From a virus (Duplodnaviria > Heunggongvirae > Uroviricota > Caudoviricetes), in the IMG/VR virus record IMGVR_UViG_2531839523_000007: a DNA stretch of 7,221 nucleotides. The stretch is one strand, 5' to 3'. Shown in pieces: positions 1 to 7,221 of this stretch; positions within the stretch are counted from its first letter, which is position 1; each line of letters begins with the position of its first letter. The notes below the pieces were generated by a model. That model had not been told where the DNA came from. It was given only the letters and a program-made list of their open reading frames with translations, and did no database searches. The position numbers and the translations under genes were made by a program.

Positions 1-2263
<2,263 letters not shown>

Positions 2264-2281
2264 ATTTTATAACCCAGAACG

Positions 2282-2308
2282 GGCGTCAGAAATGACGCCT
2301 TTTTTATT
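2282..2308 (+). terminator. Rho-independent terminator downstream of J
   Basis: Perfect 7-bp stem GGCGTCA (2282-2288) / TGACGCC (2293-2299) with a GAAA tetraloop, followed directly by TTTTTT (2300-2305) then ATT. Confidence 0.7.
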
Positions 2309-2329
2309 GCAGAAAAGCGAGAGGTAATT

Positions 2330-2929
2330 ATGCGTAAACTTTATGCCGCCATTTTGTCCGCAGCCATTTGTCTGGCCGTATCCGGTGCGCCTGCATGGGC
2401 GTCTGAACATCAGTCCACGCTGAGCGCTGGGTATCTTCATGCCCGGACGAACGTTCCCGGCAGTGATGATCTGAACGGGATTAACGTGAAATACCGTTAT
2501 GAGTTTACGGACACACTGGGGCTGGTTACGTCATTCAGCTATGCAGGAGACAAGAATCGCCAGCTGACCCATTACAGCGATACCCGCTGGCATGAAGATT
2601 CCGTGCGTAACCGCTGGTTCAGCGTGATGGCGGGGCCGTCTGTACGCGTGAATGAATGGTTCAGCGCGTATGCGATGGCAGGCGTGGCTTACAGCCGTGT
2701 GTCGACTTTCTCCGGGGATTATCTCCGCGTAACTGACAACAAGGGGAAAACGCACGATGTGCTGACAGGAAGTGATGACGGTTGCCACAGCAACACGTCT
2801 CTGGCGTGGGGGGCTGGCGTGCAGTTTAACCCGACCGAATCCGTGGCCATTGATATTGCTTATGAAGGCTCCGGCAGTGGCGACTGGCGCACTGACGGTT
2901 TCATCGTGGGTGTCGGTTATAAGTTCTGA
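2330..2929 (+). CDS. lom: Lom/Ail-family outer membrane beta-barrel protein (phage moron), 199 aa
   Basis: ATG at 2330 preceded by a GAGG Shine-Dalgarno (2321-2324). N-terminal Sec signal peptide with an AxA site (..GAPAWA/SEHQ). C-terminal half is close to lambda Lom as I recall it, including the ending ..IAYEGSGSGDWRTDGFIVGVGYKF with a terminal aromatic beta-signal. Position between J and stf matches lambda. Confidence 0.93.
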   Translation: MRKLYAAILSAAICLAVSGAPAWASEHQSTLSAGYLHARTNVPGSDDLNGINVKYRYEFTDTLGLVTSFSYAGDKNRQLTHYSDTRWHEDSVRNRWFSVMAGPSVRVNEWFSAYAMAGVAYSRVSTFSGDYLRVTDNKGKTHDVLTGSDDGCHSNTSLAWGAGVQFNPTESVAIDIAYEGSGSGDWRTDGFIVGVGYKF

Positions 2930-2956
2930 TTAGCCAGGTAACACAGTGTTATGACA

Positions 2957-2982
2957 GCCCGCCGGTTCAGGCGGGCTTTTTT
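2957..2982 (+). terminator. Rho-independent terminator downstream of lom
   Basis: Stem GCCCGCC (2957-2963) / GGCGGGC (2970-2976) with loop GGTTCA, followed by TTTTTT (2977-2982). Starts 28 nt after the lom stop. Confidence 0.75.
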
Positions 2983-2993
2983 GTGGGGTGAAT

Positions 2994-5900
2994 ATGGCAG
3001 TAAAGATTTCAGGTGTACTGAAAGACGGCACAGGAAAACCGGTACAGAACTGCACAATCCAGCTGAAAGCAAAACGTAACAGCACCACGGTGGTGGTGAA
3101 CACGCTGGCCTCAGAAAATTCGGATGAAGCCGGGCGTTACAGCATGGACGTTGAGTACGGTCAGTACAGCGTTATTCTGTTGGTGGAAGGATTCCCGCCG
3201 TCACATGCCGGGACCATCACCGTGTATGAAGATTCCCGACCCGGTACGCTGAATGATTTTCTCGGTGCCATGACGGAGGATGATGCCCGTCCGGAGGCTC
3301 TGCGCCGTTTTGAACTGATGGTGGAAGAGGTGGCGCGTAACGCGTCCGCGGTGGCACAGAACACGGCAGCCGCGAAGAAGTCAGCCAGTGATGCCGGCAC
3401 ATCTGCCCGTGAGGCGGCAACCCATGCGACTGATGCTGCAGGCTCAGCGCGTGCAGCCAGCACGTCAGCCGGACAGGCCGCGACTTCGGCTCAGGAGGCG
3501 TCTTCCAGCGCAGGAACGGCATCAACAAAGGCCACTGAAGCATCAAAAAGTGCTGCCGCTGCAGAGTCCTCAAAAAGCGCGGCGGCCACCAGTGCCGGTG
3601 CGGCGAAAACGTCAGAAACGAATGCTGCAGCGTCACAAAAATCAGCAGCCACTTCTGCATCCACTGCGACGACGAAAGCGTCAGAAGCCGCCACTTCAGC
3701 CAGAGATGCGGCGGCCTCCAAAGAGGCGGCAAAATCATCAGAAACGAACGCCTCCACAAGCGCCAGCAGTGCAGCCTCCTCGGCAACGGCGGCAGGAAAT
3801 TCCGTGAAGGCGGCAAAAACGTCCGAGACGAATGCCAGGTCTTCTGAAACGGCAGCGGAACAGAGCGCCTCAGCTGCGGCAGACTCTGAGACAGCAGCTG
3901 CATCATCGGCCCGTGAGGCGTCCATTAAGGCAGAGGAGGCAGCAGTCAGTGCCACCGCCGCCGGAAAATCGGCAGAAAGCGCCGCATCATCCGCTTCAAC
4001 AGCCACAACGAAGGCTGGCGAAGCCACTGAACAGGCCACTGCAGCAGCGAGGGCTGCTTCCGCAGCGAAGACATCCGAAACGAACGCGAAAGCGTCGGAA
4101 ACCAGCGCAGAATCCTCAAAAACGGCTGCCGCATCGTCCGCCAGTTCGGCGGCGTCATCGGCATCATCTGCGTCTGCTTCAAAAGATGAGGCGACCAGAC
4201 AGGCGTCAGCAGCGAAGGGCAGCGCCACGACGGCATCCACGAAGGCGACAGAGGCAGCTGGTAGTGCGACAGCGGCAGCACAGAGCAAAAGTACGGCAGA
4301 ATCCGCAGCAACGCGCGCTGAGACAGCGGCAAAACGTGCAGAGGATATTGCATCCGCCGTGGCGCTTGAGGATGCGAGCACGACGAAAAAGGGGGTAGTA
4401 CAGCTCAGCAGTGCGACCAACAGCACGTCTGAAACGCTGGCGGCAACGCCAAAGGCAGTAAAAGCAGCCTATGACAATGCAGAGAAACGTCTGCAGAAAG
4501 ACCAGAACGGTGCTGATATTCCCGACAAGGACCGCTTCCTGAGTAACATTAATGTTTACAGCAAAGGTGAAGTGGATCAGAAAAAGGGGATGCGATACGT
4601 TGTGGTAAATGCCCCGGCGGGTGTCCAGGAAGGTAAATATTATCCGTTAGTGATAAAAAGGAATGACAGCCATCGGGCATCCCGCGTTGTCATTTCAACG
4701 CCAAGTCGCTCAGCTAATCACAGAATGAATAATTGTGAGTTTAATGGTTTTGTTTGCGCAGGCGGCTGGACGGACCGGGGTAGCTATGCCTGTGGTATGT
4801 TCTGGGCTTATTCATCATCGGAACGCGCTATTCATTCCATTCTGATGAGTAATAAAGGCGATACCGTAGACAGCGTATTCTATATAGAAGGTGGGGCATT
4901 TCCCGTAGAGGTCTTTTTAGAAGAAGGTCTCTCCGTTACTGCACCTGCTTCTGATTATATTGTTGCTGAAACGACTTATAAATTTGGCGCAACTGATCCT
5001 TATTCTGAATCAGTTGCGGTAAATTTAATTTTAGATTTTAAACAAGGTAATGGATTTTATAGTTCGTATCCTGTTTTGAGTAAGTCAGACATTAGCGGGA
5101 ATAAGATTTACGCTAATGATGAAGTTATTGTCCGTAGTCAGAACGCGTTAAGGATGATTGCAGGTGATTACGGTGTCATATGGCGAAATGATGGAGCAAA
5201 TACTTACTTGCTCATGACTGATAAAGGCGACCAGTACGGTGGCTGGAACGGTCTTCGACCATTTGCAGTAAATAACGCAACAGGTGAAGTGACGATCAAT
5301 ACACCACTTAATTCTCCTAAGGGGATTAAGGGAAATTCTGATACAGCTACGAAACTTCAGACAGCAATAAAAATATCTGGTGTTTCGTTTGATGGTTCTA
5401 CTGATATCACTTTAACCGCTGCGCATGTTGCTGCTTTTGCCAGAAGAGCAACGGATACGTATGCCGATGCGGATGGGGGCGTTCCCTGGAATGCCGAATC
5501 AGGCGCTTACAATGTCACTCGCTCTGGCGACAGCTATATTCTGGTTAACTTCTATACCGGAGTCGGAAGTTGCCGGACCTTGCAGATGAAGGCGCATTAC
5601 AGAAATGGTGGTCTGTTCTACCGTTCTTCAAGAGACGGTTATGGTTTTGAGGATGACTGGGCAGAAGTTTATACCTCGAAAAATCTTCCACCAGAAAGCT
5701 ACCCAGTCGGCGCACCAATCCCGTGGCCATCAGATACCGTTCCGTCTGGTTATGCCCTGATGCAGGGGCAGACTTTTGACAAATCTGCTTACCCGAAACT
5801 TGCAGCTGCTTATCCGTCAGGCGTGATCCCTGATATGCGTGGCTGGATGATTAAGGGCAAGCCCGCCAGTGATCGAGCCGTATTGTCTCAGGAACAGGAC

Positions 5901-6410
5901 GGCATTAAATCACACACCCACAGCGCCAGCGTATCCAGTACGGATTTGGGGACGAAAACCACATCGTCGTTTGATTACGGCACTAAATCCACGAATAACA
6001 CTGGTGCGCATACCCATAGTGTTAGCGGTACGGCTGCTTCAGCCGGTGCACATACCCATTCGATGACATTTGTTTCAGGTGGTTCCAGTGGTGCTCCGGG
6101 AAGTGGATCACCTGATTATTCTAAATACAGTGTTAACACTTCTTCTGCAGGCGCTCATACGCACTCTGTATCGGGTACTGCTGCAAGCGCAGGTGCACAC
6201 GCGCATACTGTCGGTATTGGTGCTCATACGCACTCTGTATCGGGTACTGCTGCAAGCGCAGGTGCACACGCGCATACTGTCGGTATTGGTGCTCATACGC
6301 ACTCCGTTGCGATTGGTTCACATGGACACACCATCACCGTTAACGCTGCTGGTAACGCGGAAAACACCGTCAAAAACATCGCATTTAACTATATTGTGAG
6401 GCTTGCATAA
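2994..6410 (+). CDS. stf: Side tail fibre protein, 1138 aa; mosaic of a conserved N-terminal anchor, an Ala/Ser/Thr-rich shaft, an AT-rich central module, a tail-collar-like domain and a His-box (HxH) tip
   Basis: ATG at 2994 gives [26 protein letters not shown]..., the canonical lambda Stf N-terminus as I recall it; the GTG at 2988 used by the ORF track is probably not the start. A GGGG/GGTG SD-like sequence lies at 2985-2990. Internal [24 protein letters not shown] phage tail-fibre repeat motif (about 4390-4460). Collar-like signature [47 protein letters not shown] (about 5680-5860). About ten HxH motifs of the GAHTHS type (about 5905-6335). Stop TAA at 6408-6410. Confidence 0.93.
3340..4380 (+). 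repeat. Low-complexity Ala/Ser/Thr-rich coding repeat region within stf (predicted fibre shaft) with recurring AKTSETNA units
   Basis: Imperfect dispersed repeats of the type aaaacgtcagaaacgaatgc at about 3603-3625, 3731-3752, 3811-3837 and 4062-4088. The protein is A/S/T/E/K-dominated. Lack of stop codons in several frames generates the spurious overlapping ORFs in the track. Confidence 0.8.
6153..6304 (+). repeat. Perfect in-frame 69-bp tandem duplication (two full copies plus a 14-bp start of a third) in the His-box tip region of stf
   Basis: 6153-6221 and 6222-6290 are identical (gctcatacgcactctgtatcgggtactgctgcaagcgcaggtgcacacgcgcatactgtcggtattggt), encoding [23 protein letters not shown] twice. 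6291-6304 repeats the first 14 nt and then diverges. An older copy at about 6003-6066 encodes nearly the same peptide with different codons. Confidence 0.9.
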
Positions 6411-6994
6411 TGGCATTCAGAATGAGTGAACAACCACGGGCCATAAAAATTTATAATCTGCTGGCCGGAACTAATGAATTTATTGGTGAAGGTGATGCAT
6501 ATATTCCGCCTCATACAGGTCTGCCAGCAAACAGTACCGATATTGCACCGCCAGATATTCCGGCTGGCTTCGTGGCTGTTTTCAACAGTGATGAGTCATC
6601 GTGGCATCTCGTTGAAGATCATCGGGGTAAAACGGTTTATGACGTGGCTTCCGGCGACGCGTTATTTATTTCTGAACTCGGTCCGTTACCGGAAAATGTT
6701 ACCTGGTTATCGCCGGAAGGGGAGTTTCAGAAGTGGAACGGCACAGCCTGGGTGAAGGATACGGAAGCAGAAAAACTGTTCCGGATCCGGGAGGCGGAAG
6801 AAACAAAAAACAACCTGATGCAGGTAGCCAGTGAGCATATTGCGCCGCTTCAGGATGCTGCAGATCTGGAAATTGCAACGGAGGAAGAAATCTCGTTGCT
6901 GGAAGCATGGAAAAAGTATCGGGTATTGCTGAACCGTGTTGATACATCAACTGCACCTGATATTGAGTGGCCTACGAACCCTGTCAGGGAGTAA
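6410..6994 (+). CDS. tfa: Tail fibre assembly protein (chaperone), 194 aa
   Basis: ATG at 6410-6412 overlaps the stf stop (TAATG). The translation [61 protein letters not shown]... matches lambda Tfa (194 aa) as I recall it. GAGG lies 9 nt upstream. Stop TAA at 6992-6994. Confidence 0.93.
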
Positions 6995-7008
6995 TCATTG
7001 GGATTATG

Positions 7009-7041
7009 CCGCAGCACGTCTTAAGCAAGAACGTGCTGCGG
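7009..7041. terminator. Hairpin between convergent genes; candidate bidirectional terminator or protein-binding palindrome
   Basis: Perfect 11-bp inverted repeat CCGCAGCACGT (7009-7019) / ACGTGCTGCGG (7031-7041) around an 11-nt loop containing the palindrome CTTAAG. The T-run TTTTTT (7052-7057) is 10 nt downstream, so it is not a canonical intrinsic terminator on either strand. Confidence 0.4.
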
Positions 7042-7048
7042 TTGGATG

Positions 7049-7221
7049 CTATTTTTTCCCTGAAGCGGAAAACATTACTACAGTACCTTGAACCTTGGTT
7101 TTAACATTCTCGAAATGCTCTGAGAGTATATGTGTTAAGCCTTCTTCGGAATCTTTTGTGTTTGAAAAGATGCCTTTCTGATTGTAAATGCGCATCAGTT
7201 TTTGACCGAAGCTATTGTGCA
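7049..7221 (-). CDS. Hypothetical protein, C-terminal 57 codons only; 5' end lies beyond the right edge; convergent with tfa; AT-rich
   Basis: Minus-strand frame is open from the window edge to a TAG stop (plus-strand cta at 7049-7051), translating ...HNSFGQKLMRIYNQKGIFSNTKDSEEGLTHILSEHFENVKTKVQGTVVMFSASGKK*. An uninterrupted 57-codon frame in roughly 38% GC DNA is unlikely by chance. Absent from the ORF track because the start is off-window. I do not recognise the family. Confidence 0.45.
   Translation of the reverse strand, partial: HNSFGQKLMRIYNQKGIFSNTKDSEEGLTHILSEHFENVKTKVQGTVVMFSASGKK

Follow-up and report, generated by a model that had tools for sequence, protein, structure and literature searches.

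The stretch of DNA analyzed here, hereafter the window, comprises 7,221 bases, all of which correspond to one entire contig (AQDS01000086.1) of the Escherichia coli draft assembly GCA_000355415.2. It harbors the 3′ two-thirds of the tail-tip gene J, which extends to position 2263 and encodes J C-terminal domains (Pfam), followed by lom (2330-2929; Ail/Lom, E = 1e-120), the side tail fibre gene stf (2994..6410, + strand; 1138 aa) and the tail fibre assembly chaperone gene tfa (6410..6994, + strand; PF02413 Caudo_TAP, E = 3.8e-44), the start of which overlaps the stop codon of stf (TAATG). The stf ORF, spanning 2988/2994-6410, is full length and uninterrupted with intact J, lom, and tfa neighbours, and its product is identical to WP_024171276.1. 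The complete genome closest to the whole window was that of MB15 (97.2% identity), wherein the J-lom-stf-tfa block is located within a lambdoid prophage with intact tail genes, adjoining appY-ompT-envY. In K-12, the appY-ompT region is presumably the site of the cryptic prophage DLP12. The gene order J-lom-stf-tfa and the PF08400 domain of the encoded protein are both those of a lambdoid Stf. The window is thus part of a lambdoid E. coli prophage and its stf an ordinary member of the lambda Stf/E. coli StfR family; the Pfam domains and the synteny with the MB15 prophage uphold the initial annotation of the gene as a side tail fibre. A scan of positions 2200-7221 for promoters and terminators revealed nothing with a bearing on the repeat described below.

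Analysis of the Stf sequence revealed a mosaic organization, with a PF08400 domain at the amino-terminus (Pfam; residues 1-134, E = 5e-71), a long Ala/Ser/Thr-rich shaft, a gp34-trimer-like domain (Pfam Gp34_trimer, residues 655-758), a domain resembling phage Mu S (8JU3, E = 4e-21) and a gp37-type tip. A collar domain (PF07484, residues 906-953, E = 8.7e-12) is present ahead of the needle, along with a Pfam match to Phage_fiber. A phmmer search against the PDB aligned the last 240 residues of Stf end to end with the T4 gp37 tip 2XGF (E = 5.4e-81), with query residues 98-336 corresponding to residues 26-242 of chain 2xgf_A and every HxH motif aligned. Judged from this alignment, the Stf tip is genuinely homologous to the HxH/iron needle of T4 gp37, as had been proposed from the motifs; the duplication aside, nothing sets it apart from other members of the gp37 HxH-needle family. 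In T4 gp37, domain D11 (882-1009) interrupts the collar domain D10 (811-881 plus 1010-1026), and the chain runs out to the head and then returns, making the needle a hairpin (PMC6957217). Seven irons are held by the HxH motifs, H929/H931 being essential, and the ascending and descending limbs contact each other at G921-F970 and G964-H929 (PMC6957217).

The elements of this hairpin could be located in the window, all on the + strand. The initial portion of the collar domain (PF07484) of the gp37-type tip, reaching as far as the first HxH, occupies 5700..5912, where the 2XGF alignment starts from residue 26. The first HxH (KSHTHS, 5913-5921) and a 32-residue ascending spacer with two 10-residue xDxGTK repeats, delimited by counting the HxH spacing, lie at 5913..6005, followed by an ascending 14-residue module with the second and third HxH at 6006..6062, the equivalent of T4 gp37 H915-H931. 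The head (receptor-binding) segment of 30 residues (6063..6152) matches the variable gp37 residues 933-965 in the 2XGF alignment and is the sole part that varies in length among close relatives. The descending limb begins with a 23-residue unit at 6153..6221 (HxH at 6156-6164 and 6198-6206) and a second copy of it at 6222..6290 (HxH at 6225-6233 and 6267-6275), whereas all relatives lack one of the two. The last two descending HxH (AHTHSVA, 6294-6302; SHGHT, 6321-6329) and the return to the collar, as placed by the 2XGF alignment, occupy 6291..6407.

Tandem Repeats Finder reported one array at 6153-6304 with a period of 69, 2.2 copies, 100% matches, 0 indels and a score of 304. Direct comparison likewise showed 6153-6221 and 6222-6290 to be identical, confirming the two perfect 69-bp units recognized earlier; the offset match is perfect for 83 nt up to 6304 and does not continue leftward. 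A perfect offset repeat of 83 nt within 7.2 kb cannot have arisen by chance. The unit begins in frame 0 of the stf ORF and the same 23-residue peptide is encoded twice, the unit-to-unit junction being GGTATTGGT followed directly by GCTCATACGCACTCTGTATCGGG. The remaining '0.2' copy of the array is the 14-mer GCTCATACGCACTC at 6291..6304 (+ strand), a direct repeat that, by sequence comparison, is also found at 6153-6166 and 6222-6235 and represents the microhomology flanking the single unit of the parent. The initial annotation had regarded position 6291 as the beginning of a third unit. The match there is restricted to these 14 nt, which are already present after the single unit in one-copy relatives; therefore, 6291-6304 is an ancestral flanking repeat and not an incipient third copy.

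To identify the parent allele, a 621-nt query (5800-6420) was compared with 5,426 complete E. coli genomes. It matched 3,906 of them, with at least 80% of the region covered in 1,769, and one-copy alleles were common. The best matches were 99.8% identical and spanned 552 nt, i.e., 69 fewer; similarly, the whole window (7,221 nt) was matched over 7,152 nt in complete genomes. Many proteins in the 90% cluster to which the window protein belongs are 1,115 residues long. The 1,115-aa protein P0123 corresponds to the window protein minus the 23-residue unit, with 0 mismatches over 1,115 positions, and at the DNA level the contig L019 (GCA_017761205.1) is identical over 7,128 nt, with 0 SNPs, to the window minus one unit. 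Therefore, the duplication is the sole difference from an existing one-copy parent allele, which is in agreement with the earlier view of a very recent expansion. Contigs of neighbouring assembly accessions, apparently of the same submission series, differed by 2-3 SNPs in lom, and one differed by 8 SNPs.

DNA alignment showed that the single unit of the parent is bracketed on both sides by the 14-nt GCTCATACGCACTC, encoding A-H-T-H-S, and that the duplication junction falls inside this repeat. Slippage hence accounts for the duplication. Replication slippage or unequal exchange between the GCTCATACGCACTC copies would yield either two copies of the unit, as in the window, or none, as seen elsewhere. 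The reciprocal deletion was indeed found: P0034 (loci L005 and L006) and H156 are each missing precisely the 69-bp unit, the join in P0034 falling within GCTCATACGCACTC. A 39-nt probe for the zero-copy junction detected it in 1/5,426 complete genomes; in that genome and in L005, the zero-copy gene survives only as a dead remnant, to which a portal or terminase-side fragment is fused. In a further allele, P0111 (L007), the ascending counterpart of the unit is joined to the unit at an 8-nt match (GGTGCACA), the whole head being deleted in what is again a dead fusion gene. With both the flanking repeat in the parent and the reciprocal deletion found, this is a textbook case of microhomology-mediated tandem duplication. 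The perfect 69-bp repeat would be expected to be prone to loss by the same mechanism.

The ascending counterpart at 6006-6065 had been interpreted in the initial annotation as an older duplication of the unit. The resemblance is real, with 17 of 20 residues but only 38 of 60 nt identical to the duplicated unit; 11 of the identical residues are encoded by different codons, three of them through AGY/TCN switches between serine codon families. It is better read, however, as one half of a pair, standing on the ascending limb opposite the descending 14-residue module; T4 gp37 already has such a pair. Across the family, changes in the number and length of these modules on one limb are mirrored on the other, as in P0273 (12/12) and P0262 (two per limb). 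Although the look-alike may well go back to an ancient duplication, it belongs to the conserved needle design and is not an earlier round of the present one.

The spacing between successive HxH motifs, counted in residues, was used to compare the needle architecture across the family. In T4 gp37, it is 32 and 14 on the ascending limb, 37 across the head and 14, 9 and 9 on the descending limb. The same pattern was found in 115 of the 120 closest database proteins, in which only the head spacing varied (35-56). When the homologue search was widened (150 representatives at 50% identity), the needles retrieved had 5 to 10 HxH, and their two limbs proved to be related in a simple way. The first ascending spacer, S1, measures 12+10m residues and contains m copies of the 10-residue xDxGTK repeat, where m counts the 9-spaced HxH steps of the descending limb (S1 = 22, 32, 42, 52 and 62 for m = 1-5), and the 14-residue HxH modules are equal in number (0, 1 or 2) on both limbs. 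This balanced-limb rule was obeyed outright by 180 of 193 proteins with the collar motif; the 13 exceptions comprised seven C-terminal truncations, two single His substitutions, one extra HxH in the spacer, two dead deletion alleles and the window itself. Natural needles would thus appear to grow by one 10-residue xDxGTK repeat on the way up for each 9-residue HxH unit on the way down, and by a 14-residue module on both limbs.

T4 gp37 and the one-copy parent obey the rule, each with seven sites spaced 32 and 14 before the head and 14, 9 and 9 after it. The window allele has nine HxH spaced 32 and 14, then 35 across the head, and 14, 9, 14, 9 and 9 on the descending limb, which deviates from the balanced architecture. 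The duplication adds 23 residues and two HxH, i.e., one 14-step and one 9-step, to the descending limb only, the ascending limb being unchanged. The resulting order of a 9-step followed by a 14-step (14-9-14-9-9) was observed in none of the 193 homologues besides the window. The balanced-limb rule predicts which repeat changes, natural or engineered, are compatible with folding, a point of use in designing tail fibres whose reach or specificity is altered. Although found along the way, the rule is a more reusable result than the duplication itself.

The distribution of the two-copy form was evaluated using a 40-nt probe across the junction, designed such that none of its 28-mers occurs in one-copy alleles. 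The junction was found in 0/5,426 complete E. coli genomes, the best partial match being 34/40, and the partial matches (30-34 nt) proved to be one-copy alleles with T at one wobble position. Scanning with degenerate DNA for the junction peptide detected no true junction in IMG/VR or GTDB (one genome per species), a serine-specific degenerate scan found no match in the JGI metagenomes, and the junction was present in none of 276 retrieved homologous proteins. A first degenerate scan with WSN codons had yielded matches in five contigs of IMG/VR and in a genome of Erwinia persicina; these were discarded, as they represent the usual C-terminus of a family of shorter needles with five HxH. A tblastn search of 50,697 phage records with the 70-residue duplicated region gave no match, the low-complexity filter having probably masked the query. 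Among the indexed assemblies, a single contig, from a short-read draft, carries the two-copy allele. The UniRef100 entry 'n=24' was not accepted as independent support for the allele, being ambiguous as UniRef100 merges fragments, and a 'samples 3' count is common to the other GCA_00035x contigs looked up and probably reflects versions or mirrors of one assembly.

The comparison of copy number among stf homologues, suggested in the initial annotation as a check, thus yielded no second carrier of two units; relatives have one copy and, rarely, none. Its description of the locus as a hot spot for copy-number variation holds insofar as the site slips both ways and a zero-copy allele exists, but not in frequency, with the two-copy form in 0/5,426 and the zero-copy form in 1/5,426 complete genomes. 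The two-copy form is a one-off and the locus is not hypervariable. A phase-variable or contingency locus was considered and rejected, as the unit is a multiple of three and the copy number almost invariant among strains.

The position of the surplus residues within the needle was deduced from the spacing. When the six descending HxH are labelled a-f, only the last four (c, d, e and f) show the canonical 14-9-9 spacing. Copy 2 together with the HxH of AHTHSVA and SHGHT would hence maintain the canonical seven-site needle, and copy 1, with its two orphan HxH, would form a surplus of 23 residues where head and needle join. This reading increases the head spacing from 35 to 58, a value within the natural range of 32-70 observed in 186 rule-conforming proteins. 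From the sequence, it is most likely that the C-terminal copy keeps the seven-site register and that copy 1 is surplus beside the head; in the other registers, the six-stranded needle would have to absorb an internal bulge of 23 residues, seemingly a more difficult arrangement. AlphaFold2 monomer models showed almost no secondary structure for either the two-copy tip (pLDDT 42) or a one-copy control (pLDDT 44). Taken together, the allele is probably a real and very recent in-frame slippage duplication that retains the canonical needle and carries copy 1 as surplus by the head, rather than an extension of the needle. Such a duplication would likely be short-lived, with an effect on fibre folding or receptor binding that ranges from neutral to harmful.

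Among the other explanations considered, an adaptive one would have the extra segment, bounded by His boxes, remodel the head region of the tip and be selected for altered or wider receptor recognition. Its precedent is found in T4 gene 37, in which laboratory duplications, according to papers citing the work, gave viable mutants with a host range expanded to Yersinia (Tetart, Repoila, Monod and Krisch 1996, J Mol Biol 258:726); therefore, an unbalanced insertion in such a tip can be tolerated and may even be useful. In the window, both ends of the duplication fall within His-box codons, the stf ORF and the tfa chaperone gene are intact, and the surplus unit adjoins the receptor-binding head under the canonical-register model. 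The zero divergence between the copies and the single carrier, however, give no sign of selection or spread, and the unit does not include the head (specificity) segment. Moreover, Stf is dispensable for lambda-type phages (lambda PaPa lacks Stf), prophage fibre genes often decay, and the zero-copy and head-deletion alleles both reside in dead fusion genes. Selection for altered receptor recognition is accordingly improbable. There is an equally small chance, by analogy with T4, that the two-copy allele is functional and marks the beginning of tip remodelling, as a naturally occurring equivalent of the host-range duplications in T4 gene 37; the surplus unit would then enlarge or reshape the head-needle junction, possibly with two extra three-chain metal sites, and change receptor use. 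If true, it would show HxH needles gaining modules before the other limb catches up.

It is very unlikely that the second copy is an artefact of the draft assembly, the strain having one copy or some other number and the assembler having expanded the repeat. The window is the whole of a 7.2-kb repeat-bounded contig, its allele occurs in no other indexed assembly, and the contigs of neighbouring accessions are one-copy with only 2-3 SNPs elsewhere. The 152-nt perfect repeat may also exceed the read length, so that two versus more than two copies is not secure. As a matter of sequence logic, however, any k-mer of at least 16 nt across the unit-to-unit junction is nonexistent in a one-copy allele, and the commonest paralogous alleles have no more than 30 exact nt in common with the junction, departing from it before it is complete. 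Therefore, at the k-mer or overlap lengths in normal use, the junction cannot be assembled unless real reads contain it. In addition, assemblers usually collapse tandem repeats rather than expand them.

The initial annotation had further suggested that the tip would gain length in defined metal-site increments with every unit added, i.e., that the extra unit adds two in-line His6-metal sites to a functional tip. The unit does hold two complete HxH with the natural 14- and 9-residue spacings, homologues vary from 5 to 10 HxH, indicating that needle length is evolvable in modules, and a metal site needs only three HxH, one per chain (2XGF; PMC6957217). But the needle is a hairpin (PMC6957217), its limbs are matched among the 193 homologues and the duplication affects the descending limb only. 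Natural variants grow on both limbs, relative to which the ascending limb of the window (32, 14) is ∼24 residues short, and the 14-9-14-9-9 order is absent from the homologues. As natural needles grow by matched increments on both limbs, the duplication cannot simply extend the iron-stacked needle, and a tip lengthened by a defined increment is very unlikely.

The preferred reading of a recent slippage duplication with a surplus copy beside the head can be placed among known systems. Among the closest is the T4 gp37 tip (2XGF), with homology over the collar, needle and C-terminus and an HxH spacing that the one-copy parent shares apart from the head, which is 37 in T4. A chaperone gene lies directly downstream in both, tfa in the window and gp38 in T4. 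Unlike T4 gp37, the window allele carries nine HxH, an additional 14+9 block being confined to its descending limb; its head segment is unrelated in sequence, and the tip is carried by a lambdoid Stf shaft instead of the T4 distal half-fibre. With lambda Stf/StfR, the window shares the J-lom-stf-tfa synteny and the PF08400 N-terminal domain, and the lambda orf-314/orf-194 region showed 86.8% DNA identity over ∼55% of the 621-nt query. From lambda Stf/E. coli StfR-type genes, it differs only by the 69-bp duplication, one-copy alleles of its gene being common.

The T4 gene 37 duplications are the nearest precedent for the duplication event, being tandem, in-frame and located inside a gp37-type tip, like that of the window. 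Their end-points reportedly lie in the conserved His-motif codons ('His boxes'), and the duplicated segment is said to include the specificity (head) domain. They differ in that they were selected in the laboratory and duplicate the head domain, whereas the window has a duplicated needle-limb block, found in a prophage, with the unit 6153-6221 placed wholly after the head segment 6063-6152. By analogy, this precedent keeps an adaptive functional role alive, if only as an outside chance. From direct-repeat slippage duplications, no difference was observed, as the window shows head-to-tail perfect copies, a 14-nt microhomology, a reciprocal deletion and an otherwise identical parent. The duplication alone matters little, being one recent slippage mutation in a prophage gene that is well known; nevertheless, the zero-, one- and two-copy alleles and the head deletion form a series that, on one allele background, is usable to test how far the needle tolerates irregularity. 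The window allele is a new natural example of a known mutation type in a known protein family.

The needle-forming tips of the gp37 type were found to follow a strict length rule, which was evaluated on window 5913-6329 together with the homologous proteins P0136-P0276 and P0001-P0120. The His-free spacer of the ascending limb measures 12+10m residues, with m xDxGTK repeats, and m equals the number of 9-residue HxH units on the descending limb, while the 14-residue HxH modules occur in the same count on both limbs. The rule holds across needles of 5 to 10 HxH, and 180 of the 193 tips conform outright. A short needle with only five HxH, of the form 34 / 35-37 / 9, 9, characterises a related fibre family (loci L008-L013, from IMG/VR contigs and from Erwinia persicina NZ_JACYMO010000004.1), whose C-terminus also ends differently, in …ITNSFIKLMGWYRSA. 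Upstream in this family, a 37-residue motif is tandemly repeated.

Comparison of the ascending and descending 14-residue modules of the window (6006-6065 vs 6153-6212) showed 85% identity in protein and 63% in DNA, with three serine codon-family switches (AGY/TCN). This divergence may reflect an old split under strong constraint on the peptide. Alternatively, there may have been selection against DNA identity, which would otherwise promote deletion of the head. One allele lacks the whole head segment (L007 988-1902, Logan ERR3061932 contig); its join, from ascending module to descending unit, is an 8-nt match, GGTGCACA (window 6045-6052 and 6189-6196), and it is located in a tape-measure::stf fusion remnant.

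The zero-copy allele, an exact 69-bp deletion, was likewise found in degraded prophage remnants only (L005/L006 4001-5266; L014 2177-2632, accession NZ_CP019961.1). One example is a portal::stf fusion adjoining a resolvase/invertase-family gene and ynaE, a neighbourhood that we take to be a Rac-like region, and another is a remnant adjoining appY. The confinement of this allele to such remnants suggests that tip rearrangements of this kind survive chiefly where selection on the fibre gene has ceased. Both slippage products found are carried on the allele background with the 14-nt direct repeat flanking the unit. DNA alignment of the commoner stf tip alleles (L002 and L003, head type ...VTGASAVSQWSQNGSVHKVVSAASVNTSAAG) revealed an identical unit peptide written in different codons; lacking the perfect 14-nt flanking repeat, alleles of this type should be far less prone to 69-bp slippage.

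Elsewhere in the window, the Ala/Ser/Thr-rich, low-complexity Stf shaft (3300-4500) gives rise to spurious ORFs of considerable length in either orientation, such as one of 311 aa at 3491-4426 on the minus strand, and the public record annotates one such ORF as a gene. Within the J coding region, at 1790-1832, Tandem Repeats Finder located 2.3 tandem copies of a 19-bp unit, with 84% matches. Directly after tfa, at 7008-7056, a long inverted repeat rich in GC, GCCGCAGCACGT...ACGTGCTGCGG, leads into a T-run. Together they look like a terminator that tfa would share with a methyltransferase gene, which in relatives is annotated as convergent. With respect to most one-copy contigs of neighbouring accessions, the sole SNPs are in lom (window 2602 and 2767). 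The relative L018 differs from the window at 11 positions, and their clustering at 2602-2812 hints at a short recombined tract within lom. A promoter/terminator scan placed terminator-like hairpins with T-runs directly after J (2281-2300) and directly after lom (2956-2977), a pair that flanks lom much like the arrangement in a moron insertion.
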